Shown here: piece after piece, positions 27,412 through 39,165 of the stretch
Position numbering within the stretch: the stretch's first letter is position 1
Layout: each line of letters starts with the position of its first letter
Assembly: GCA_001303415.1 (NCBI GenBank)
Contig: LJTN01000010.1
Coordinates: 2,140-66,139, forward strand
From: Myxococcales bacterium SG8_38
GTDB taxonomy: Bacteria > Myxococcota_A > Polyangia > Polyangiales > Houyiibacteriaceae
Direction of reading: 5' to 3'
DNA length: 64,000 nucleotides
Notes under the pieces: generated by a model
Told to the model about the DNA's origin: nothing
Seen by the model: only the letters and a program-made list of their open reading frames with translations
Databases searched by the model: none
Program-made: the position numbers and the translations under genes

Positions 27412-27693
27412 ATGAGTAGCAAGCTATTTGTAGGCGGATTGAGCTGGAACACCACGAGCGCAGCCCTCGAGGAGGCCTTTGCGGCCTGCGGCGAGGTCGT
27501 CGAGGCGAAGGTCGTCACCGACCGAGATTCAGGTCGGTCGCGGGGCTTCGGCTTCGTGACGTTTCAGGACGATCAAGGGGCCGCGCGAGCGATTGAAGAG
27601 CTAGACGGCTCGGCGCTCGACGGTCGCACCATCAGAGTGGACCGCGCCAACGATCGGCCGAGCGGCGAGCGCCGTTCGAATCGTCGCTGGTGA
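27412..27693 (+). CDS. RRM-type RNA-binding protein
   Basis: 93 aa. RNP2 KLFVGGL and RNP1 RGFGFVTF. Trimmed from ORF 27187-27693. Confidence 0.9.
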
Positions 27694-28904
27694 GAAGAGA
27701 GCTCTTGAAGCAGCAAGCTGCAATCGCCCGTGTCGTCGAACGTCCCGAATCGGAAGCGGATCGGACGTTCGACGCCCTAGGGCTCATCCCCGAGTTGCTG
27801 TCGGCGATCAATCACGCCGGCTATAGAAACCCAACTGCAATTCAACAGCAGGCGATCCCCCCGGCGCTGAGCGGGCGCGATGTTCTCGGCTGCGCGCAGA
27901 CGGGAACTGGAAAAACCGCAGCGTTTACGCTGCCGTTGCTGCAACATCTCGACGCACGTGCGGGAAACGAGCCTCGTCTTCGCGCGCTGGTTCTCACTCC
28001 CACGCGTGAGCTCGCGGCACAAATCAGCGCAAGCTTCAGCACGTACGGAGCTGACCTCGACCTTTGGCACACGGTCGTCTTTGGCGGCGTGAGCGACAAG
28101 CCGCAGATCGCCGAGATCCGCCGCGGCTTGGACGCGCTGGTGGCCACCCCGGGACGCCTGCTCGATCTGATGGGTCGCGGTGTCGTTCGTCTAGACGACG
28201 TGGAGATCTTCGTCGTCGATGAGGCGGATCGAATGCTCGACATGGGGTTCTTGCCGGACGTGCGCCGAATCGCCAGAGCCCTGCCCGAGAAGAGACAGAC
28301 GATGTTCTTCTCGGCTACGATGCCTCCCGAGATACGACGGCTGGCAGAAGGGCTGCTCGACCGTCCCGTGAGCGTCGCCGTGGCGCCTATCTCCTCGACC
28401 GTCGAGCAAGTCGCGCAGCACGTCTTCTTCGTAGACAAAGCCAAGAAGCGAGGCTTGCTTGCGGATCTGCTGCGTGATCCTGAGCTGAAGCACACCATCG
28501 TGTTCAGCCGGACCAAGCACGGAGCCAACCGAATCGTGCGAGAGCTCGGCAAGGCTGGCATCCGCGCAGAAGCGATCCACGGCAACAAGTCGCAAGGTGC
28601 GCGAACTCGGGCGCTCGACGCGTTTCGCGACGGAAGCCTGTCGGTGCTCGTCGCGACGGACATCGCGGCACGCGGCATCGACGTCGAGGGCGTGACACAT
28701 GTGATCAATTTCGATCTGCCGAATGTTCCAGAGACGTATGTTCACCGGATCGGACGGACCGCCCGCGCGGGCGCGTCCGGAGTGGCGCTGTCTTTTTGTG
28801 ACCGAGAAGAGCGATCTCATCTCGCGAGCATCGAGAGATTGATCGGAAAGCGTCTCATTCAGTCAGACGGCGGAAGGACGCCGAGAACCGGAGCGGAGGC
28901 ATGA
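27690..28904 (+). CDS. DEAD-box ATP-dependent RNA helicase
   Basis: Q motif (TAIQQQAIP), [43 protein letters not shown] start overlaps the upstream stop (GTGA). Confidence 0.92.
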
Positions 28905-29266
28905 CCAACAAGATATTCGTAGGCAATCTCGACTTTGGCGTCACCGAGCAGCAGCTTCGTGAGCTGCTTTCCGAGGTGGGTGAAGTCGTGGATGTGCACA
29001 TCCCAACCGACAGAGAGTCCGGGCGCCCGCGGGGCTTCGCGTTCGTGCGTTTCGCGAACGAAGCGCAGGCAGCGAAGGCGGTCGAGACCATGAACGGTCA
29101 GGACGTTTCGGGGCGCGCTCTCAGGCTCGACCTCGCCGAGGATCGGCCCCGCGCACCCCGCGCGCCTGGACGAGACTTCGGTGGAGGTGGGCGACCGGGC
29201 GGATTCCAGAAGGCCGGGAGGCCCAAGGGCAGCCGACGAGGCCTTCGCGCCAAGAAGCGCAGCTGA
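28901..29266 (+). CDS. RRM-type RNA-binding protein with Arg/Gly-rich tail
   Basis: RNP2 KIFVGNL, RNP1 RGFAFVRF, C-terminal RGG-like tail. ATGA overlap with the helicase stop. Confidence 0.9.
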
Positions 29267-29409: not shown

Positions 29410-30219
29410 GTGGTCAGTCGTATCGAAAGGTTGCGGGAGATCGGACGCGCCGGCCGCGAAATCGCGGTCGAAGCGGTCTATCTCGCGCAGCGAATCGACA
29501 CACGGCAGCTGGAGGCGGAACGATTGGCCTCCACGCCGCTCCTGGTCGACGCGGGGCGCGAAGGGCTCTGCGTCTTGTTTCGCTACGGTGTCGTCGTTTT
29601 TCTGAACGTGACGCCGGCAGAGCGGACGGGGTTCATCTCGGCCGTCGAGCCGCTGCTGACGGAGCGGTTCGAGAAGCCCGTGAGCGACCGGTTGGTCCTC
29701 ACGATCGAGGCGATCGACGCGGACCGCGTGCGCGGTGGGGTGGTCGTGTGCCCGGACATCGACATCGAGCGAGTGCAGGTCATTGCGGACGCGCTCGCGA
29801 AGAGCGTGGCGCTCATCCACTACGAGGAGACTGCATCTTCGGCGTTCGAGGATGTCGAGCCGCTTGCTTTCAATCTCGAGCGCACCGGACGGACGCCACG
29901 GAGCGCGCGAGGGCTCGCGAAGAGGATCGGCAGCATCCTCATGACGCTTACCCGGACCGTCGGTAGGGTCGAGGCCGCCGACAAGCCCGAGGTGCTTTGG
30001 GAGCATCCCGAGCTCGATTCGCTCCATGCGCGACTCAGCGACGAGTTGGAGCTGGTGGAGAGGCATCGTGCGCTCGAGCGCAAGCTCGACGTCATGTCGA
30101 ATGCGGCACGTTCCTTGCTCGACCTTCGCCTACACGCACAGAGCCTGCGGGTCGAGTGGTACATCGTGCTGCTCATCCTCGTCGAGATCGTGATCGCCCT
30201 CTACGAGCTTTCGCGCTGA
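29410..30219 (+). CDS. RMD1/DUF155 family protein
   Basis: DUF155 core with the characteristic C-terminal TM RVEWYIVLLILVEIVIALYE. GTG start. Confidence 0.72.
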   Translation: MVSRIERLREIGRAGREIAVEAVYLAQRIDTRQLEAERLASTPLLVDAGREGLCVLFRYGVVVFLNVTPAERTGFISAVEPLLTERFEKPVSDRLVLTIEAIDADRVRGGVVVCPDIDIERVQVIADALAKSVALIHYEETASSAFEDVEPLAFNLERTGRTPRSARGLAKRIGSILMTLTRTVGRVEAADKPEVLWEHPELDSLHARLSDELELVERHRALERKLDVMSNAARSLLDLRLHAQSLRVEWYIVLLILVEIVIALYELSR

Positions 30220-30919
30220 GCATGATGACGCCGAGGCTTTCCGCAATCGCGCGCGACACACGGCGTCGGCCCCGCGGCGTAGAGAGGAGATTCTGATTGA
30301 CCTCGAGCTCGACCCCCACGTATCGAGACTGATCGAAGATGCGACGGAGATAGGTGACGAAACCGTCGGTCTTGCCGAGATAGGGATAGTTCCGCCTCAC
30401 ACGAAGATCGGGATCGACCTCGCCAAGCGCATCCTTCCAACGTTGGCAGAACGCTCGCTCCGTTGCTCTCGAGGGATCGTAAAGCAGGCCCACGTCGGCC
30501 GTTCGAAGCTGGCCGTCGACCCGCGGTGTGAAGCTATGAACCCCGACGTGCACCACCTGGTGCCCGCGGCGGACTCGCTCCTCGATCCACGCCTCGACGG
30601 CATCGCGGTGGGGGAAGTAGTGCTCTTCGAGCAGGGCGGCGCGGTCGGCAGCGCCGAGCTTCTTGGAAACCTCCGAGAAGAGAAGCGGGTGCCCGACGGA
30701 ACGGTTGAGATCGACCAAGAGCCGGGTGACCGTGCTCGCGTAGAGCGGCGCCCCGAGCGAGCGCTGCAAAGCACACGCCAATGCCAGGGCGCCGAAGTCG
30801 CATCCTCGATGGGTCTGCAGCAAACGTTGGGCGCTCGGGCCTGCGAACAAATCGCCGTATTGCGGCGGCACGCGCGCGCCACCGTGCTCGCACGTGAGCA
30901 GCAGCACGGGGCGTCTCAT
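30173..30919 (-). CDS. N-formylglutamate amidohydrolase family protein
   Basis: LLTCEHGGARVP N-terminal motif, VHSFTP, GVELEVNQ. ATGA overlap with the upstream GCS2 gene. Trimmed from ORF 30173-31432. Confidence 0.8.
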   Translation of the reverse strand: MRRPVLLLTCEHGGARVPPQYGDLFAGPSAQRLLQTHRGCDFGALALACALQRSLGAPLYASTVTRLLVDLNRSVGHPLLFSEVSKKLGAADRAALLEEHYFPHRDAVEAWIEERVRRGHQVVHVGVHSFTPRVDGQLRTADVGLLYDPSRATERAFCQRWKDALGEVDPDLRVRRNYPYLGKTDGFVTYLRRIFDQSRYVGVELEVNQNLLSTPRGRRRVSRAIAESLGVIMLSAKARRGRSRSRRG

Positions 30920-32163
30920 GGCTCGCTCGAGAAGCGTTCTCCTCGCGCCAGACAGTCTGCGAGGCGGAGGTAGACCTCGTGGAGCTGCGCAGGGCTTGGG
31001 TTCCGGCCGGTCGCCCGCAAGATTCTGCGAGCCAGGCAGCCTTCGTTCAGGATGAAGCGGAGATCCCCAACCGTGGCAGCTTGCACATGCGCCGGCGTTG
31101 GCTCGACGCACGTCTCGACGACGTGCTGCCAAATCTCGGCCGCACGGACGGCACGGCCACCGAGACCGAACGTGCGAAGAAAGCGGGCGTCGTCGATGAC
31201 CGCATGGTCCGCGTCGCGAATCGTCGATAGCAACAACTGCTCGAGCGCGCGGTCGTCCCAAGCTTGCTGGTCTTCGCAGCTCGTCCAAGTCTCTTCGACG
31301 AGCGCGCGAACGGCAGCGATTGTCGCTTGTGCCACGGAGAGGTCCATTCGCGGGCACTCCTGAACGTCGAGAAGCCGGATCTCGAGCGCCATGCGGTCGA
31401 ACCGCGCGATGCAGCCCCGGGCATTGATCCACTCGTGCTGGAGAATGCCTTCTGGATCGAAGGGTGCGAGGTCACGATAGATCCCGTCTAGCAACATCTC
31501 GTAGTCACGCTGGCGAAATACGGCCTCGGGGATCACGCGGCCGGTGACCGAGGGAATACGGCGCGCATTGTGGCGGTAGACCTCGACCCGAGTGTCCAGA
31601 AGACCGCTGGGGCGACCGTCGACGAACGGCGAGCTCGCAGCCAGCGCGGGGAGGATCGGAAGAATCAACCGAATTGCAGCGTGCAGCCGCCCTAGCTCCT
31701 CGTCGTTCGCAAAGGGCAGGTTGATGTGCATGCTCTGCAAATTCGACCATCCATGTCCGCGACAGTCGAAGATGCGGTGCAGGCTCCGGTAAATGACGTC
31801 GTCTTCGTGAGGCCAGAGCCGAAGCTCGTCAGCAGCCATCCAAGGGTGCATCGCGGTTGGGAGCAGCCGCGCGCCCATGGGACCCAGCAGTGAGTCGATC
31901 GTGGTGATGTCTCCTTGAAAAACCTCGTGTAGACCGGAGAGGGTCCTCACGGGTCCGTTGGTCTTGAGCTCCACAAGATGCAATGCGAGCTCGTTCGACC
32001 ATCGCAACGCGCCCCGATCGACCTCCATCTCGTAGCTGCCGGCCACGGCTTTCAAGAGCTCGTCTGCAATGGGCCGAACGGACAAGGTTTCGGCATCGAC
32101 GATCATGTATTCGATCTCGATGCCGACTGCTTCGAAGAGATGGAGGTGGTCGGAGGGGGTCAC
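30916..32163 (-). CDS. Carboxylate-amine ligase, glutamate-cysteine ligase family 2 (YbdK-like)
   Basis: GIEIEYMIVD, ELALHLVELKT, HINLPF, VEVYRHN. GTG start overlaps the ATP-grasp stop (GTGA). Confidence 0.85.
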   Translation of the reverse strand: MTPSDHLHLFEAVGIEIEYMIVDAETLSVRPIADELLKAVAGSYEMEVDRGALRWSNELALHLVELKTNGPVRTLSGLHEVFQGDITTIDSLLGPMGARLLPTAMHPWMAADELRLWPHEDDVIYRSLHRIFDCRGHGWSNLQSMHINLPFANDEELGRLHAAIRLILPILPALAASSPFVDGRPSGLLDTRVEVYRHNARRIPSVTGRVIPEAVFRQRDYEMLLDGIYRDLAPFDPEGILQHEWINARGCIARFDRMALEIRLLDVQECPRMDLSVAQATIAAVRALVEETWTSCEDQQAWDDRALEQLLLSTIRDADHAVIDDARFLRTFGLGGRAVRAAEIWQHVVETCVEPTPAHVQAATVGDLRFILNEGCLARRILRATGRNPSPAQLHEVYLRLADCLARGERFSSEP

Positions 32164-33620
32164 CTTCGCTCCCGCTGTCCTCGTCGCTCCAGGCGGTCGT
32201 AGAAGCTCTGCATGATGCGGAGGTAGAGCTCGTCCTTGAGGATGGAGTCCTCCGTGCCGGCCTCGATGCTCGGGTTGTCGTTCACCTCCATGACCAGGAG
32301 CCTGTCTCCCACCTCCTTGATGTCGACCCCGTACAGGCCGTCACCGATGAGATTGGACGCGCGCACGGCGAGATCGACCACTGCCTTTGGCGCATCTTCG
32401 ACCGCGAGCGTATCGGTGCGACCGTAGAGGCGTCGTTTCTCGCCAAGCGCCTTCTGGATCTGCCAATGACCGCGGGCCATGTGGTATCGACACACGTAGA
32501 GCGCCTTGCCGTCGAGCACACCGACACGCCAGTCGAAATCGGAAGCGGCGAACTCCTGGGCGATGACGAGCTCGGACTTCTGAAGGAACTCGCGCAGGTG
32601 CGCCGACAGCTCGGCTTTGGTGTCCGCTTTGACTACGCCCGCCGAAAACGAGCTGTCGGGCTTCTTGAGAACGCAGGGAAGGCCGAGCTTTTCGGCGACC
32701 TGGTCAGCGCTCTCGCGATACACGACGAGCGTCTTCGGGCAGTCGATGTGGTTCTGCTCGAAGAGCTCGGCCTGATAGACCTTGTTCGTGCAGCGCACGA
32801 TCGATTCCGGATCGTCTATCACGACCAAGCCCTCGGCTTCTGCGCGACGGGCGAAACGGTACGTGTAATGATCGACAGCGGTCGTCTCCCGCAAGAACAA
32901 CGCATCGAACTCTGCAATGCGGCCGAAGTCCTCCTTGCCGATGACCCATGCGTCGAAGCCGACTTTCTTTGCAGCACGAAGGAAACGTTGAATGGCTTTA
33001 TCGTCCGATGGCGCGTCGACTTCGTCGGGGTTGACCAGGATCGCGAGATCGTAGCGCGCACGTTGCACGCCGGGTGGGTGCGGTCTGTCGAAGAATCGCC
33101 GCGCCTGCTCGATCACGAACTCGCGATGCGACTCGGGAATCTCGTGCGAGGCGATGACCCGGAGCTTCTCGAGACGCCATTGATCGGCGTAAACGAATTC
33201 GGCGCGCAGCAAAGGGGCGGGGAAGTGATTGAAGAGAGCACGACATAGCCTGTCGTACCGCTTGGCCATGTTACGGCCAAAGTAGATGCTGAGAACGAAT
33301 CGATCGCTTTTAATCGGAGCGAGTGTTTGTCGCACGAGGAGCTCGGTCGTTTCCGAGGCGATGCGGACGAGAGACGCTTGCCGCAGGTCCTGCATGGTCG
33401 TGACCGATGGAAGTGGCCTGTGTCCCCGGGCAGCGGCCAAGAGCGAGACGTAGTAGCCGGCGCTCTGGTACGCGTAGCTTCTGCAAAGGTTGAATATCTT
33501 GGCCCGTTTGAGCTCGACGAATCTCGGATTGGTGAGGTAGTCCGACGCGGTCACCACCTCGGTCCCTGGAATCTGGAGCGGCCAGTTCTCCGGCCGCTCG
33601 ACGACGATCAGCGCGCTCAC
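32160..33620 (-). CDS. RimK-type ATP-grasp ligase with RimK-like N-terminal (RLAN) domain
   Basis: N-terminal KIFNLCRSYAYQSAGYYVSLLAAARGHRPLP. C-terminal ATP-grasp (PCVLKKPDSSFSAGV, VIAQEF, LLVMEVNDNPS). GTG start overlaps the peptidase stop. Confidence 0.85.
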   Translation of the reverse strand: MSALIVVERPENWPLQIPGTEVVTASDYLTNPRFVELKRAKIFNLCRSYAYQSAGYYVSLLAAARGHRPLPSVTTMQDLRQASLVRIASETTELLVRQTLAPIKSDRFVLSIYFGRNMAKRYDRLCRALFNHFPAPLLRAEFVYADQWRLEKLRVIASHEIPESHREFVIEQARRFFDRPHPPGVQRARYDLAILVNPDEVDAPSDDKAIQRFLRAAKKVGFDAWVIGKEDFGRIAEFDALFLRETTAVDHYTYRFARRAEAEGLVVIDDPESIVRCTNKVYQAELFEQNHIDCPKTLVVYRESADQVAEKLGLPCVLKKPDSSFSAGVVKADTKAELSAHLREFLQKSELVIAQEFAASDFDWRVGVLDGKALYVCRYHMARGHWQIQKALGEKRRLYGRTDTLAVEDAPKAVVDLAVRASNLIGDGLYGVDIKEVGDRLLVMEVNDNPSIEAGTEDSILKDELYLRIMQSFYDRLERRGQRERR

Positions 33621-34345
33621 CGGGCACGTCCCTTGGGTTGGGGTTCGGGGGTCAGCACCAGCAGGTTCGCATCATAGGTCATCACGCCCAGCGCAATGGC
33701 CATGATTAGGCGGTCCATACGAACGCTGTAGCGATGTGTTCGAAATCGCGGGTTGTCGTGCGATGGATCCGACACCGTGACCTCGCGCTTCTTTCGGTCG
33801 TATCCGCTCAGAACCACGAAGTGCCCGACCGGCTCGCCCCGTACATCGTCGTATTGATCCTCATGCTCCCGTGCGCACTGATAGAGATAGGTCGCGCTGA
33901 GCCCAGTGAGGATGGGAGCGCCCCGGTTCAAGAAGCGCCGAATCAACGACGGCCGAAGCTCCTCGAAGCGCACCACGCCACCGAGCCGGAGGTACTCGAG
34001 ATATGCATCAGTGGCGATTCGAAGCTTGCGCGTGCGTTTGTGCTTCAGCTGCGCCTCGAGCCGTTCCGCCAGGTCCACGCCGCCGCCGAACCAGGTTGGG
34101 TCGAACATCTGAAGGTTATAGGTGTAGATCTCGGCCAGATAGCCGCGGCGAAGCGCGTGGCAGGCGAGGGAGACTGCAAACGTGCCCCCTTCCGGCAGCG
34201 GCTCGACCTCCGCGACCACGCCTTCGAGAGGGGTCTCGTCTCCCCAGTACCGATAGACCGCATGCAGACAGGTGGGGCCGCAAGTCGTGTCGTCGGGCTG
34301 AGGCAGGATTTCCAGCTCGAGCTGGGCGGTAAGCGGTTTGGCCAT
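33617..34345 (-). CDS. Cytoplasmic papain-fold (C39-like) cysteine peptidase family protein
   Basis: Gln six residues before the Cys (QPDDTTCGPTC) and GHFVVLSGYD His motif. No signal peptide. First gene of the four-gene operon. Confidence 0.6.
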   Translation of the reverse strand: MAKPLTAQLELEILPQPDDTTCGPTCLHAVYRYWGDETPLEGVVAEVEPLPEGGTFAVSLACHALRRGYLAEIYTYNLQMFDPTWFGGGVDLAERLEAQLKHKRTRKLRIATDAYLEYLRLGGVVRFEELRPSLIRRFLNRGAPILTGLSATYLYQCAREHEDQYDDVRGEPVGHFVVLSGYDRKKREVTVSDPSHDNPRFRTHRYSVRMDRLIMAIALGVMTYDANLLVLTPEPQPKGRAR

Positions 34346-34470
34346 GTTGGGAGCGGAAGAATAGCTGAGTCGCGCGGGGGTGGCATGCTACCGGGATTGG
34401 GCTCTGCGGGGCGGGGCGCCTGGGTTTTGGTTCCCGTCCGGAGGTGGTATTCTCGCCTCAGAGGCCCGCA

Positions 34471-34902
34471 ATGATCACCGTCGCGCAACTGCTCAATTAC
34501 AAAGGTTACAACGTAGAGACGATCGCTCCCGACGCGACCGTGTACGAAGCAATACGACGCATGGCCGACCTCGACATCGGCGCGCTGGTCGTGATCGAGA
34601 GTGGAAAGGTCGTCGGTCTCATCACCGAGCGTGACTACGCACGCAACGTCTTTCTCAAAGGCAAGTCCTCCCCGACGACTCCGGTGCGGGAGGCGATGGC
34701 GGACGATGTCTTGGTTGTCGGCTGTAACAAGACGACCAGGGACTGCATGGCGATCATGACCGGCAAACGGACGCGGCACTTGGTGGTCATGGAAGCGGGG
34801 GAGCTCGTCGGCATCCTCTCGATCGGCGACCTAGTCCGGAGCATCGTGGCCGAGCAAGACATGACGATCGAGCAGCTCGAGCAGTACATCCTTCGCGGCT
34901 GA
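34471..34902 (+). CDS. CBS domain pair protein
   Basis: Two CBS motifs (GALVVIESGKVVGLITERD; RHLVVMEAGELVGILSIGD). ATG 34471. Confidence 0.85.
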   Translation: MITVAQLLNYKGYNVETIAPDATVYEAIRRMADLDIGALVVIESGKVVGLITERDYARNVFLKGKSSPTTPVREAMADDVLVVGCNKTTRDCMAIMTGKRTRHLVVMEAGELVGILSIGDLVRSIVAEQDMTIEQLEQYILRG

Positions 34903-35100
34903 GGGCCAACCGGACGGGCGAGCCGTGGTCACACTCCTGCCGAACTGCGTTCGTGGGCTTGTAATCTAGCCTACACTCACGCACCTGGTGCCATATGCGA
35001 GCCGCTCGTGTTGGGATCGGGGCGGCGTCCCTCTCGTGGCATCTTCCCAGCCGGCGCGATCTTCGATATACGCAACTTTACCCGTTTTCTGGATCTCAGC

Positions 35101-36795
35101 ATGACCCACACGCCCCAGCACTCTTGGAGCGCCATCGTGGCGGTACTTGCGATCCTACTCGTAGGCGCCGAAGAATGCTCGCGCACGCCGCAACCGTCGC
35201 CGATGGATCTCATTGCGCCGGATCGCCAGATTCACCCTGACTATGTACAAACGGTCGAGGGCGAGCCTTCGTTCGATTACCGGAACATCGATGGCACCGG
35301 AAACCACACCGTGCACTTCGAGCTGGGGGCTGCCAATACGACCTTTCGGCGAATCCTGCCCAACGAATACTCCGATCAGATTTCCGCCATGGCCGGCATC
35401 AACCGGCCCTCACCACGCGAGGTCAGCAACGTCGTCTGCGATCAAGGAGCGCCGGTTCCGAACGAGCTCGGGTCTAGTGACTTCCTCTGGCAGTGGGGGC
35501 AATTCCTCGACCACGACATCGACCTCACGGAGGGAAACGAGCCATTTGAGCCCGCGCACATTCTCCCAGAAACGGGAGACCCATTTTTCGATCCCGACAA
35601 TACGGGCCTTGCGCAGATCGAGTTTTTCAGGTCTCGCTCCCACGCGGGCACTGGCATCGACGCCACATATCCGCGGCAGCAAATGAACATGGTCACGCAC
35701 CACATCGATGCGTCCCACGTCTACGGCTCCGATCCCGTCCGCGCCGCGGCCCTGCGGACCAACGATGGAACCGGCCGGCTCAAAGTCAGTGCGGGCAACC
35801 TGCTACCGTTCAACATCGACGGGCTTCAGAATGCGGGGGGGAACGGCCCCGAACTCTTCGTAGCAGGGGACATCCGGGCAAACGAGCAGGTGGGTCTCAC
35901 CGCGATGCACACCCTTTTCGTGCGCGAGCACAATCGGCGTGCCGCGGAAATCGCCGCGAGTAATCCGAGTCTCTCCGGGGAAGAAATCTACCAGGAGGCG
36001 CGCCGTTACGTGGGCGCATTGATGCAGGGGATCACCTACAACGAGTTCTTGCCGGCTTTGCTCGGTCCCAATGCCTTGACGCCGTACACTGGGTACAAGG
36101 AGACGGTCAGCCCGGCCATCTTCACTTGCTTCTCCGCGGCAGCGTTCAGGTTTGGGCACAGCGCGGTGAGCGAAACCTTGCTCAGGCTGGAGGCCGATGG
36201 TCAGCCGAGCCCGTTTGGACACCTGCCGTTGAAGGATGCGTTCTTCGCGCCCGAGCGACTGGTCACCGAGGGTGGCATCGAGCCGATCCTCCGGGGTCTT
36301 GCGGCCCAAGAGATGTCCAAAATCGACGTGAAGGTCGTCGACGCTTTGCGGAATTTCTTGTTTGGCGATCCAACCGCAGGAGGCCTCGACCTGGTTTCGC
36401 TCAATCTTCAGCGCGGCCGGGACCACGGGTTGCCGGGCTACGTTGGAGCGCGAGTCGCGCGCGGCTTCGGTAATGTGAGCTCGTTTGCGCAAGTCAGCTC
36501 GGATCCCGAGGTCCAGTCGCTCCTGGCGGCCGTTTATCCAAGCGTAGAGTCCATCGACATGTGGGTCGGAGGGATTGCCGAGGATTCAGTCAACGGCGGA
36601 CACGTGGGACCCTTGGTATTCCACCTTCTCAAGGTTCAGTTCGAGTCACTTAGGAATGGCGACCGGTACTGGTACCAGTGGGATATGTCCGCCGCGGAGA
36701 TCGCCGAAATCGACGGCACGACGCTGGCCGACGTCATTCGGCGCAATACCACCATTGGAGCAGAGATCAGCGACGACGTGTTTCACGTCAACTGA
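35101..36795 (+). CDS. Animal haem peroxidase family protein (peroxidase-cyclooxygenase superfamily)
   Basis: FLWQWGQFLDHDIDL (distal His), FRFGHSAV (proximal His), LQRGRDHGLPGY, signal-anchor N-terminus. ATG 35101. Confidence 0.85.
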   Translation: MTHTPQHSWSAIVAVLAILLVGAEECSRTPQPSPMDLIAPDRQIHPDYVQTVEGEPSFDYRNIDGTGNHTVHFELGAANTTFRRILPNEYSDQISAMAGINRPSPREVSNVVCDQGAPVPNELGSSDFLWQWGQFLDHDIDLTEGNEPFEPAHILPETGDPFFDPDNTGLAQIEFFRSRSHAGTGIDATYPRQQMNMVTHHIDASHVYGSDPVRAAALRTNDGTGRLKVSAGNLLPFNIDGLQNAGGNGPELFVAGDIRANEQVGLTAMHTLFVREHNRRAAEIAASNPSLSGEEIYQEARRYVGALMQGITYNEFLPALLGPNALTPYTGYKETVSPAIFTCFSAAAFRFGHSAVSETLLRLEADGQPSPFGHLPLKDAFFAPERLVTEGGIEPILRGLAAQEMSKIDVKVVDALRNFLFGDPTAGGLDLVSLNLQRGRDHGLPGYVGARVARGFGNVSSFAQVSSDPEVQSLLAAVYPSVESIDMWVGGIAEDSVNGGHVGPLVFHLLKVQFESLRNGDRYWYQWDMSAAEIAEIDGTTLADVIRRNTTIGAEISDDVFHVN

Positions 36796-36857
36796 TCACG
36801 ATTTTTTCGCAACGCCCTGGAGGGCAGGGACGAGCCATCGTAGGCTAGCCGAGTCCG

Positions 36858-37616
36858 ATGCAAGAAGGCTTGGTTACGGCACTGTTGTGGCTTCTGTTTG
36901 GCGGCACACACGTCGGGCTGACCATGCCGCCCCTTCGAAGGCGCATGAGCAATGCCTTGGGTGAAGCTGGATTCGTCGTCCTTTACTCCGTCATCGCAAT
37001 CGCGACCTTCGCCGCGCTCGTGCACTATGTGGCCTTGCACCGGTGGGATGAGCCGCAAGCCGCCCTGTTGGTGACCATTCCGCCCGTTCGGGGTGCCCTC
37101 TTTGGGCTTTCCGTCGCCGGGTTCTCGCTCTTCATCGCGGCGGTTCTCGTCTATCCACGTCTCCCGATGGCCACCTTCCGCCATCGCGTGACCCCCGTGC
37201 GCGGCATCCAACAGATAACGCGTCATCCGTTTTTTTCGGGTATTGCGATCTGGGCTGCAGCCCATTCATTGCTCGCGCCGTCGCAGGTGACGTTCGTGTT
37301 TTTCATCGGCGTCGTCGCGCTGGCGTTCGTCGGGGCGATTCACCAAGATCGACGACTGATCGCCGAGCTGGGGGAGCCCTATCGCGCGTATGTGGCGGCG
37401 ACTTCGTTCTGGCCCTTGGTGGCTGTGCTCACCAAGCGTCAGCGCATCCGTTGGCGAGAGCAGCCCTGGCTTGCCTACGGCGTAGGCATCGGCGCGAGCC
37501 TCGGGCTCTACCAGGTCCATGACCACATCTTCGATCACGGCGGGGTCTACGTGATCGGCGTGGTTAGCCTTGGCTCGATCCTCGCGATCGTGAGCTCACG
37601 CTTCAGAGCGGGTTGA
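36858..37616 (+). CDS. NnrU family membrane protein
   Basis: Polytopic membrane protein with GIQQITRHPFFSGIAIWAAAH, characteristic of the NnrU family. Confidence 0.7.
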   Translation: MQEGLVTALLWLLFGGTHVGLTMPPLRRRMSNALGEAGFVVLYSVIAIATFAALVHYVALHRWDEPQAALLVTIPPVRGALFGLSVAGFSLFIAAVLVYPRLPMATFRHRVTPVRGIQQITRHPFFSGIAIWAAAHSLLAPSQVTFVFFIGVVALAFVGAIHQDRRLIAELGEPYRAYVAATSFWPLVAVLTKRQRIRWREQPWLAYGVGIGASLGLYQVHDHIFDHGGVYVIGVVSLGSILAIVSSRFRAG

Positions 37617-37671
37617 CATCGAAGCCGCGCCCACCAGTAATAGCTCTTCCGGTGAAAAGGAAACGGCCGAG

Positions 37672-39165
37672 GTGTTCGACGACTATCTCCACCATGATGC
37701 GCTCGGTCTTGCCGAGCTGATCCGCAAGCGCGAGGTTCATCCAAAGGAAGTCGTCGAGGCGGCCATCTTGCGCGCGGAGAAGATCAACCCCGAGCTCAAC
37801 GCAATCGTGACACCGCTCTATGACTATGCGCATGAGCGGGTCCGACGAGATCTCTCGGGACCCTTCGCCGGTGTTCCCTTCCTACTCAAGGACGTTCACC
37901 ACGCCCTCGAGGGGACGCCGATGAGCAACGGCAGCCGGTTGCATCAGGGCGAGGTGTCGTCCTTCACCGCCGAGATCGTCCGCCGATTCCTGAATGCCGG
38001 CCTGGTCGTGTTCGGCAAGACCAATACGCCCGAGTACAAGGCCTCGGTGTTCACGGTGCCGAAAGCGTGGGGCGCCACCCGCAATCCCTGGGACGTCACG
38101 CGGTCGGCCGGTGGCTCGAGCGGGGGGTCGGCGGCGGCCGTCGCAGCCGGGATCGTTCCCATGGCCTCGGCCACCGACGAGGGCGGCTCCATTCGAATGC
38201 CCGCGTCGGCCTGTGGCGTCTTTGGTCTCAAGCCGAGCCGCGGACGAAATCCCGTGGGCCCCGACTTCATCTGGGAGGCCGAAGGGCTTTCGACCTCACA
38301 CGTCGTGAGCAGAAGCGTTCGTGATACCGCTGCAATGCTCGACGTGACCCAAGGTCTTGAGCCGGGCTCCTCCTACGCTGCGCCCGCACCGCCCACGGGG
38401 GGCTTCCTCGGCGCTGCAGAGCAGGATCCAGGCAAATTGCGTGTCGGTATTTCGACAGCGACCGAGGTCTTCGGCACCAAGATGGAGTCAGGCTGTCTCG
38501 ACGCGGTTCACGTAACTGGCAATCTTTTAGCGGACTTGGGGCACGATGTGGACGAGGTCGAGCTTCCCTACCACGAGTGGGAGGTGCTCCGGACGGTCGT
38601 TTTGCTCATGGCTGCCAATGCCGCGGTCCTGGTGTCGCGCCTCGAGGCCAAGTACGGCCGATCCAAGGTTCGAGGATCGCTCGAGGAGGTGACGCTGCTC
38701 CTCGCGCGGACCGGACGAGCGATGTCCGCCGAGGAGCTCGCATCCAGTCGGCTGTCGGCCCGCCAGGTTGGGCTCGCCGTGTGCCGATTCTTCGACCACT
38801 ACGACATCCTGGTGACGCCCACCCTCGGCCGGATCCCGGTTCGCCTCGAGAAGACCGAGCCCACGGCTGGCGAGCAGAGGCTGCTCCGATTTCTGGTGTC
38901 TCCCGCGGCGGCGGGGGTGTTCCGTGTTCCTCGGCTTCGTGAGCGCGTCCTCGATGCGCAGCTCGAGACCTTCTCTCAGCAGGTGCTGCATCGGACGATG
39001 GTCGCCAATCTGACCGGGATTCCGGCCATGTCCGTGCCCTTACATCGCACCGAGAACGAGCTGCCGGTGGGCGTTCAGTTCCTCGGTCGCTATGGAGATG
39101 AGGTCACTCTCCTGCGGCTTGCGACCCAGCTCGAGCGAGCGATGCCCTGGCGTTTGCGCAGCTGA
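37672..39165 (+). CDS. Amidase (amidase-signature family)
   Basis: [14 protein letters not shown]...[26 protein letters not shown] signature. GTG start. Confidence 0.9.

Follow-up and report, generated by a model that had tools for sequence, protein, structure and literature searches.

We analyzed a 64,000-nucleotide stretch of the genome of Myxococcales bacterium SG8_38 (contig LJTN01000010.1; hereafter, the window) and concentrated on a minus-strand operon at positions 30173–34345, in which the open reading frame (ORF) listing and the sequence place four ORFs within approximately 4.2 kb. In reading order, these encode a papain-fold cysteine peptidase, an ATP-grasp ligase with an N-terminal RLAN domain, a second ligase of the GCS2 family, and a hydrolase of the N-formylglutamate amidohydrolase (FGase) family. 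The four genes constitute a tightly coupled operon with translational coupling, their order is retained across phyla, and the RLAN-ATP-grasp ligase is the hub of a wider set of gene arrangements. Our tentative reading, which we regard as quite possible though short of probable, is that the operon is a self-contained cytoplasmic module for the non-ribosomal synthesis and turnover of a short, acidic, γ-glutamyl-type peptide, following the logic of glutathione. The operon is a typical member of an already predicted, biochemically uncharacterized kind rather than a new kind.

At all three junctions within the operon, the start codon of one gene overlaps the stop codon of the previous gene by 4 nt (Table 1). 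An earlier note on this DNA, made from its sequence alone, had described the four minus-strand genes, their GTGA, GTGA, and ATGA overlaps, and the domains of their products; the sequence confirms the genes and their overlaps, and Pfam agrees with the domain assignments, its calls exceeding the gathering cut-offs for all four proteins. The mechanically defined ORF of the FGase-family gene extends to 31432, a longer form without homologue support; we placed the start at the ATG listed in Table 1, which is where both the homologues and the Pfam match set in. None of the four proteins contains a signal peptide, transmembrane segment, or hydrophobic segment, in keeping with the description of the peptidase as cytoplasmic, and none carries an acidic C-terminal tail. 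PADLOC gave zero matches for all four proteins, and a role in anti-phage defense was set aside.

A scan with the ligase, conducted at one genome per species, identified relatives in at least 583 species-representative genomes. We surveyed the best 80 of these loci (54–98% identity), scoring gene presence by tblastn with the four window proteins. The nearest locus belongs to a Polyangiales metagenome-assembled genome (MAG; 98%), and the 80 loci span Myxococcota, Gemmatimonadota, Planctomycetota, Gammaproteobacteria (including the cultured Wenzhouxiangella sediminis), Vicinamibacteria (Acidobacteriota), Spirochaetota, 'Eiseniibacteriota', and one archaeon, a Thermoplasmata MAG. The peptidase is present in 70 of the 80 loci, GCS2 in 72, and FGase in 53, with several of the misses attributable to contig ends; all four genes occur together in approximately 50, nearly always in the order seen in the window. 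The 4-nt overlap itself recurs at 45 of 70 peptidase/ligase junctions, 40 of 70 ligase/GCS2 junctions, and 25 of 52 GCS2/FGase junctions. Between phyla, the ligase is 55–60% identical, and a relative with 39% identity in RLAN, from an organism of 40% GC, has all four genes in order. Conservation of order and overlaps across phyla rules out chance adjacency, and it answers the question, raised in the earlier note, of whether the linkage extends beyond this genome. Metagenomes, searched with three of the proteins, yielded thousands of 90%-identity clusters each for the peptidase, the ligase, and the FGase-like hydrolase.

All-versus-all clustering of ORFs of at least 70 aa across the 80 loci found no fifth conserved gene, transporter, or regulator. 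Nor is a small precursor or tag ORF (20–90 aa) conserved among these loci, where only the four genes and their antisense shadows recur. Where FGase or GCS2 is absent we recognized no replacement, and loci without FGase have an operon that ends after GCS2; FGase, and to a lesser extent the peptidase, is accessory rather than obligatory. In a Polyangiaceae MAG (L023:10775–12726), the peptidase-ligase pair is followed downstream by GCS2 and FGase genes encoded on the other strand, indicating that the halves of the operon are separable yet still adjacent.

An exhaustive HMMER search for RLAN returned 831 clusters at 50% identity, and sampling of these clusters revealed further arrangements: the RLAN ligase with GCS2 only, with the peptidase only, or alone; stand-alone GNAT-RLAN-ATP-grasp and RLAN-ATP-grasp-GNAT fusions; and a divergently encoded GNAT neighbor. 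The constant element across these arrangements is the RLAN-ATP-grasp protein, which is therefore the hub of the system. It is usually partnered by a second amine-acylating enzyme, GCS2 or GNAT, and the hydrolases are frequent and dispensable. Models for the synthase of N-acetylglutaminylglutamine amide (NAGGN) gave no match to the GNAT-RLAN fusions at E ≤ 1e-5. In a single observation, a GNAT-RLAN-ATP-grasp fusion (L092:2031–5457 and L093:1863–5289) lies directly downstream of a CitMHS/DcuC-type carboxylate transporter gene and a separate GNAT gene; this transporter-linked fusion recalls the synthesis of β-citrylglutamate by mammalian RIMKLB. A 305-aa gene upstream of an RLAN-GNAT fusion proved unrelated to the peptidase of the operon. 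One metagenomic protein (P0255; 410 aa) appears (hhalign E 5.8e-55) to join the peptidase (from residue 38) to RLAN (at 211–350); this could be a genuine fusion or, the contig being fragmentary, the product of a frameshift at the 4-nt overlap.

The hub ligase of the window is predicted, from its domains, to consist of an N-terminal RLAN domain (Pfam 6.3e-49; 165.9 bits, cut-off 25) followed by an ATP-grasp amidoligase of the RimK/GshB/LysX type (Pfam RimK 9.5e-11; 42.1 bits, cut-off 21; residues 279–454). Its ATP/Mg residues are intact (K319, Q355-E356, D363-x-R365, D433, E445, and N447) and invariant in 20 orthologues from many phyla. K319, E356, D433, E445, and N447 align with the phosphate-binding Lys, the hinge Glu, and the D/E/N metal ligands of RimK, which we take to be K141, E178, D248, E260, and N262; the D-x-R motif aligns with RimK as well. 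RimK structures provide the best PDB matches (7qyr, 5zct, and 4iwx), and cyanophycin synthetase is among the weak ATP-grasp matches. The protein nonetheless scores 82.9 bits against the NCBIfam rimK_fam model TIGR00768, under its cut-off of 143.4, 38 against a cut-off of 331 for the S6-Glu ligase model NF007764 (PRK10446), and 24.1 vs. 272 and 23.2 vs. 299 for the glutathione synthase models NF003573 and TIGR01380.

RLAN itself bears an invariant signature (N44/Y51-Q52/G55-Y-Y/R65/H67/N117/P136). Its AlphaFold2 (AF2) model is mediocre (predicted local distance difference test [pLDDT] score of 73), and Foldseek matches for this model are almost all ATP-grasp enzymes (ArgX, ITPK1, PsnB, RimK, and PPIP5K), albeit weak ones (E 2e-3 to 0.1; template modeling [TM] score ~0.3). 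Comparison of RLAN with the ATP-grasp part of its own protein by hhalign found nothing, and a PDB profile search gave no support either. Judged by the model, RLAN may be a degenerate ATP-grasp-like half, or the likeness may be an artifact of the mediocre model; we did not adopt the notion of a degenerate ATP-grasp duplicate, which Foldseek hints at and neither hhalign nor the PDB profile search supports.

The substrate-binding residues of RimK bear on what the ligase might extend. In Pseudomonas RimK, the last Glu of the bound chain is touched by R189 and N262, whereas residues earlier in the chain are touched by R8, R64, S7, S14, and S68 (PMC10092738). The R189 motif of RimK, FRSNLHRGG, is replaced in our ligase by H-W-Q-I-Q-K plus an insert; R189 itself aligns to Q, within an invariant H-W-Q-I motif that is followed by the 8-residue insert. 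A manual alignment of the N-terminal domain places N at the position of R8 and shows the equivalents of R64 and S14 to be kept, as is that of N262. Given the changes at R189 and R8, the substrate is probably not a RimK-type poly-Glu tail, and since the Glu-binding Arg189 is replaced, the residue added by the ligase need not be Glu.

These changes bear on the main rival to a free peptide, in which at least one protein encoded outside the operon is reversibly modified in the manner of glutamylation; the operon would then be a prokaryotic counterpart of RimK/RimB and of tubulin TTLL/CCP. Here, GCS2 would start a γ-carboxylate branch, as PafA does on Pup, and the RLAN-ATP-grasp ligase would elongate it via α-carboxylates. 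Shortening of the chain would fall to the FGase-like enzyme, and removal of the branch point, or exposure of the acceptor C-terminus, to the papain-fold enzyme. The ligase points in both directions: its best sequence and structure matches, RimK and LysX/ArgX, act on protein C-termini, but the residues that hold poly-Glu in RimK, R189 and R8 (the latter by manual alignment), are Q and N. Genomic context is similarly divided. RimK operons likewise include a trimming protease (PMC11957791, PMC10092738) and the Pup ligase has its closest relative in GCS2 (PMC2588565), but none of the 80 loci shows a linked gene for a target or tag, acidic tails are lacking at the ends of all four proteins, and stand-alone GNAT fusions and ligase-only loci are easier to accommodate with free substrates. 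Protein modification better explains the pairing of two ligases with two hydrolases, their tight coupling, and the basic character of FGase and RLAN described below, which would suit an acidic chain. Taken together, we consider it somewhat unlikely.

The second ligase matches GCS2 over model positions 1–287 of 291 (Pfam 9.9e-30; 104.3 bits, cut-off 21) and is predicted to be a carboxylate-amine ligase of the YbdK/GshA type with its active-site residues intact. GhExE, the Mg/ATP-site signature for the superfamily of carboxylate-amine ligases (PMC2588565), occurs as G14-I-E16-I-E18 and is invariant among 24 orthologues, as are E58, H62, E65, H137, N148, R249, E261, R263, and D266, among them Glu, His, and Arg residues of the core strands; H146 is nearly so. 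Active-site residues, whose absence on alignment the earlier note had named as a potential objection, are thus invariant in both ligases. The GCS2 protein falls under all NCBIfam equivalog cut-offs (PRK13515, the best, 64.1 vs. 371; YbdK TIGR02050, 54.7 vs. 176.4; Glu-Cys ligase, 46 vs. 409; gshA_cyano, 34.1 vs. 249), and because it is distant from the characterized subgroups, its use of glutamate is an extrapolation.

The fourth protein belongs to the FGase family (PF05013; 2.9e-22, 80.3 bits, cut-off 28.9). It contains the reported CEHGG motif (C10-E11-H12-G-G), and the family motifs (EH, D-x-NR, HSF, and E-x-E) are conserved, with E11, H12, N72-R73, H128, E204, and E206 unchanged across 21 orthologues. 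Its closest structure is the uncharacterized Atu2144 (2odf; profile E 3.5e-39), and its match to a bona fide FGase, 2q7s, is partial only (2.2e-5). No NCBIfam model, including HutG, matched at E ≤ 0.01.

Such scores speak to the most ordinary explanation of the locus, in which enzymes of known pathways (HutG, GshA/GshB, RimK modification of S6, and C39 bacteriocin processing) are merely adjacent. The generic names given in databases, 'N-formylglutamate amidohydrolase', 'RimK family protein', and 'C39 family peptidase', would lead one to it. However, every NCBIfam equivalog is far under its cut-off, HutG is unmatched, no ABC transporter lies nearby, and conserved order and overlaps across phyla exclude chance adjacency. 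Plain histidine catabolism, a concern of the earlier note, is likewise not in evidence, with no hut genes or other known pathway alongside FGase. We regard this explanation as effectively refuted.

The charge of the encoded proteins follows a distinct pattern. The window FGase protein has an isoelectric point (pI) of 10.4, its orthologues have a median pI of 11.1 (range 9.1–12.0), and the value is still 9.05 in the relative from the 40% GC organism. RLAN is also basic in this clade (median pI 9.9); we rejected basicity as a family-wide trait of RLAN, as it is confined to this clade. The ATP-grasp core (pI 5.4) and GCS2 (pI 5.1) are acidic. The basic FGase and RLAN suggest an anionic substrate. 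We also observed that the window FGase protein ends in an Arg/Ser-rich tail, AKARRGRSRSRRG.

An anionic substrate could be a polyanionic chain that is free rather than protein-bound, a polymer or oligomer on the lines of poly-Glu or of a branched, cyanophycin-like polyamide, made and mobilized as a nitrogen/carbon store or osmolyte. The ATP-grasp ligase would then build the backbone and GCS2 attach the side-chain residues, with the peptidase as depolymerase and the FGase-like enzyme splitting the units thus released. RimK makes poly-α-Glu in vitro (PMC10375531), but the RimK Arg that holds the terminal Glu is lost in our ligase; cyanophycin synthetase is among the weak ATP-grasp matches, but no second ligase domain is fused, unlike in that enzyme. 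Synthesis and breakdown genes stand together, as with cyanophycin, but in roughly a quarter of the loci, or more, FGase is missing without replacement. A polymer would fit the basic FGase and RLAN and, weakly and with sampling uncontrolled, the saline and sediment settings from which many host MAGs derive. We judge this explanation distinctly unlikely.

The product of the first gene, which is 100% identical to AMJ62_04040, matches Peptidase_C39_2 (Pfam 1.3e-10; 42.4 bits vs. a cut-off of 24) and C39 (8.8e-6). The previously noted motifs are present (Q16-x5-C22 and G174-H175-FVVL), and Q16, C22, H175, and D193 are invariant among 44 homologues and align to the Q/C/H/D of the ComA peptidase domain. 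Its AF2 model (pLDDT 87.6) includes a complete C39 core, to which a helical insert is added at approximately residues 83–140. Foldseek matches include the C39 domain 6mpz (TM 0.78 on a 140-residue target), the phytochelatin-synthase-like enzyme Alr0975, and PeiR, a pseudomurein endoisopeptidase, each with E ~1e-5 and 10–17% identity; the presence of an isopeptidase among these best structural matches is consistent with the modification of proteins. The catalytic residues Q16, C22, H175, and D193 are intact, and the protein is predicted to be a C39-type cysteine peptidase (or transpeptidase) of papain fold, cytoplasmic and stand-alone. The Phytochelatin Pfam family gave no match in this protein. 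Across the 80 loci, no ABC exporter fusion or neighbor and no linked GG-leader small ORF is conserved, and the lack of an ABC-transporter fusion or neighbor argues that the protein is not a bacteriocin leader peptidase. Alr0975 cleaves glutathione, forming a γ-Glu-Cys acyl-enzyme.

If the operon makes and turns over a glutathione-like peptide, GCS2 would first activate a γ-carboxylate, that of L-Glu by family precedent, and couple it with an amino acid X through the amine of the latter. The RLAN-ATP-grasp ligase, like GshB and RimK, would then activate the α-carboxylate of X or of the growing product and add at least one residue. The very basic FGase-like enzyme would remove a C-terminal or N-acylated Glu-type residue, a bond of the same type as in N-formyl-Glu, and the papain-fold enzyme would form an acyl-enzyme at Cys22 to cleave or transpeptidate the other amide bond, much as glutathione is handled by phytochelatin-synthase-like enzymes. 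In lineages with GNAT in place of GCS2, the amine would instead be capped by acetylation, giving products like N-acetylaspartylglutamate (NAAG) or NAGGN.

Several lines of evidence support a free peptide. The exchange of GCS2 and GNAT is expected for N-capping of such a product. RLAN ligases found with GCS2 only or alone, stand-alone GNAT fusions, and the GNAT fusion beside a CitMHS/DcuC carboxylate transporter lend support, as does the lack of a linked tag or precursor gene and of an exporter. By analogy, so may the NAGGN operon, which pairs a ligase with a peptidase (PMC8070244), and the reasoning previously applied to GCS2 neighborhoods (PMC2588565). The peptidase model, which resembles Alr0975 about as well as it does C39 domains, would also fit.

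Other observations weigh against this reading. For a simple metabolite, two hydrolases coupled to two ligases amount to a futile cycle, an arrangement commoner in reversible modification or polymer turnover, and the basic FGase and RLAN hint that the substrate is polyanionic or macromolecular and not a tripeptide. The nearest relatives of the ATP-grasp part, RimK and LysX, both modify the C-termini of proteins. The GCS2 protein lies far from every characterized GCS2 subgroup, with PDB matches reaching only E ~3e-4, and the likeness of the peptidase to Alr0975 is weak (TM 0.41–0.48; 9–11% identity) and does not exceed that to C39 domains or PeiR. The general scheme put forward in the earlier note, in which two ligases build and two hydrolases trim, is consistent with all of our findings, and the GCS2/GNAT exchange and the lack of a linked tag or precursor ORF or exporter speak for it; its mechanism stays at the level of a proposal.

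The operon's value lies in being a well-defined, widespread, and experimentally tractable unknown. Four soluble enzymes encoded in 4.2 kb, with no need of a linked substrate gene, lend themselves well to expression in a heterologous host and to reconstitution in vitro. A small peptide product could be a new and widespread low-molecular-weight thiol, osmolyte, or signaling peptide among bacteria of soils and sediments; with a protein as substrate, the operon would represent a new reversible post-translational modification system. A bolder version of the latter, which strikes us as rather unlikely, casts the operon as a portable prokaryotic 'glutamylation code' kit that acts reversibly on proteins encoded elsewhere, with GCS2 initiating branches, the RLAN-ATP-grasp ligase elongating them, the basic FGase-like enzyme shortening them, and a cysteine isopeptidase removing branches or exposing C-termini. 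If true, many bacterial phyla and some archaea would possess, in four enzymes, an analogue of the glutamylation of tubulin by eukaryotic TTLL/CCP.

Table 1. Genes, domains, and junctions of the operon in the window
Feature	Position	Strand	Details
Peptidase gene	33617–34345	-	242 aa
RLAN-ATP-grasp ligase gene	32160–33620	-	486 aa
RLAN domain	33108–33548	-	residues 25–171 of the ligase, the extent of the Pfam match
Pre-ATP-grasp and ATP-grasp catalytic part	32163–33065	-	residues 186–486 of the ligase
GCS2 ligase gene	30916–32163	-	415 aa
FGase-family hydrolase gene	30173–30919	-	248 aa; start, ATG at 30919
GTGA start/stop overlap, peptidase/ligase	33617–33620	-	letters ...CCCGGTGAGCG
GTGA start/stop overlap, ligase/GCS2	32160–32163	-	letters ...AAGGTGACCC
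ATGA start/stop overlap, GCS2/FGase	30916–30919	-	letters ...GCCATGAGAC
Divergent intergenic region, presumed promoter	34346–34470	.	125 nt, 5' of the operon

We recognized no sigma-70-like site and no Rfam match in the 125-nt region upstream of the operon. Beyond this region lies the divergent CBS-pair gene described earlier, which is real (ATG at 34471; CBS 1e-21). This gene and a DUF155 neighbor are kept only in the closest relatives of the operon and not beyond, and the CBS gene is outside the four-gene system. At the other end, the 3' end of the FGase gene overlaps that of the convergent DUF155/RMND1-like gene (29410–30219) by 47 nt (30173–30219), with no terminator-like site between the two; terminator-like hits fall only within genes. 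Base composition is even across the whole window, and the operon is therefore not an obvious recent island. Two further features of the window merit mention. A compact plus-strand cassette at 27412–29266 encodes an RRM RNA-binding protein, a DEAD-box helicase (27690–28904), and a second RRM protein (28901–29266); the first RRM ORF stops where the helicase starts, the helicase and second RRM genes share a start/stop overlap at 28901–28904, and the whole looks like a cold- or stress-related RNA-remodeling unit. At 35008–39165, also on the plus strand, three genes encode, in order, a bacterial 'animal haem peroxidase' that is full-length (An_peroxidase 6.5e-149) and starts with a hydrophobic segment, an NnrU membrane protein, and an amidase.

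Systems of this kind have been anticipated. Iyer, Abhiman, Burroughs, and Aravind (2009, Mol Biosyst 5:1636) reportedly defined RLAN, noted its fusions with RimK-like enzymes, and predicted from its links to peptidases, GNAT, and COOH-NH2 ligases that such neighborhoods serve in peptide synthesis or tagging; the RLAN entry in Pfam (PF14401) presumably stems from that study. Our survey recovered both the GNAT fusions and the association with GCS2. Literature searches on combinations of RLAN, RimK, GCS2, FGase, and C39, and on Atu2144, found no biochemical characterization, as the earlier note had supposed; a Klebsiella ATP-grasp paper was discarded, as it concerns an unrelated TupA-like enzyme.

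Among characterized systems, TTLLs are ATP-grasp enzymes, and tubulin modification by TTLL/CCP, like pupylation (the ligase PafA and the deamidase Dop), pairs a ligase with a hydrolase acting on Glu carboxylates, a conceptual precedent for the operon and an analogy only. PafA, the Pup ligase, derives from GCS2-like ligases (PMC2588565). Unlike pupylation loci, those of the operon have neither a Pup-like ORF nor proteasome genes. With RimK/RimB the relationship is closer in sequence, as RimK is the nearest solved and named relative of the ATP-grasp part, and RimK operons of Pseudomonas also hold a trimming protease (PMC11957791, PMC10092738). However, RimK lacks RLAN, its partner protease is retropepsin-like whereas that of the operon is papain-fold, and GCS2 and FGase have no counterpart in the RimK system. 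For the peptidase alone, Alr0975 and C39 domains share the papain fold with Gln/Cys/His/Asp; they are among its best matches by Foldseek and by Pfam and PDB sequence comparison, but it differs from them in its extra helical insert, the lack of an ABC transporter, and an identity of ~10–17%.

The remaining comparisons concern small molecules. In the NAGGN operon (asnO-ngg-peptidase), Ngg makes an N-acetyl dipeptide, and a peptidase is also encoded (PMC8070244). This system and RIMKLA/B, the RimK-like mammalian synthases of NAAG and β-citrylglutamate, combine acyltransferase and peptide-bond functions in a manner analogous to the GNAT-RLAN-ATP-grasp fusions. The window operon, in contrast to NAGGN loci, uses GCS2 rather than GNAT and lacks an amidotransferase, and we found no Ngg model matches or asparagine-synthase neighbors for the window ligase or the GNAT-RLAN fusions. 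Members of GCS2 make γ-Glu-Cys, and the absence of a Pup-like ORF has been used to argue for glutathione-like peptides (PMC2588565). Compared with glutathione biosynthesis itself, the operon enzymes fall under all GshA and GshB cut-offs, an extra RLAN domain is present, and two hydrolases are encoded in the same operon; the two systems share a cytoplasmic pairing of a GCS2-superfamily ligase with an ATP-grasp enzyme of the RimK/GshB clade, with GhExE and the ATP/Mg residues intact.

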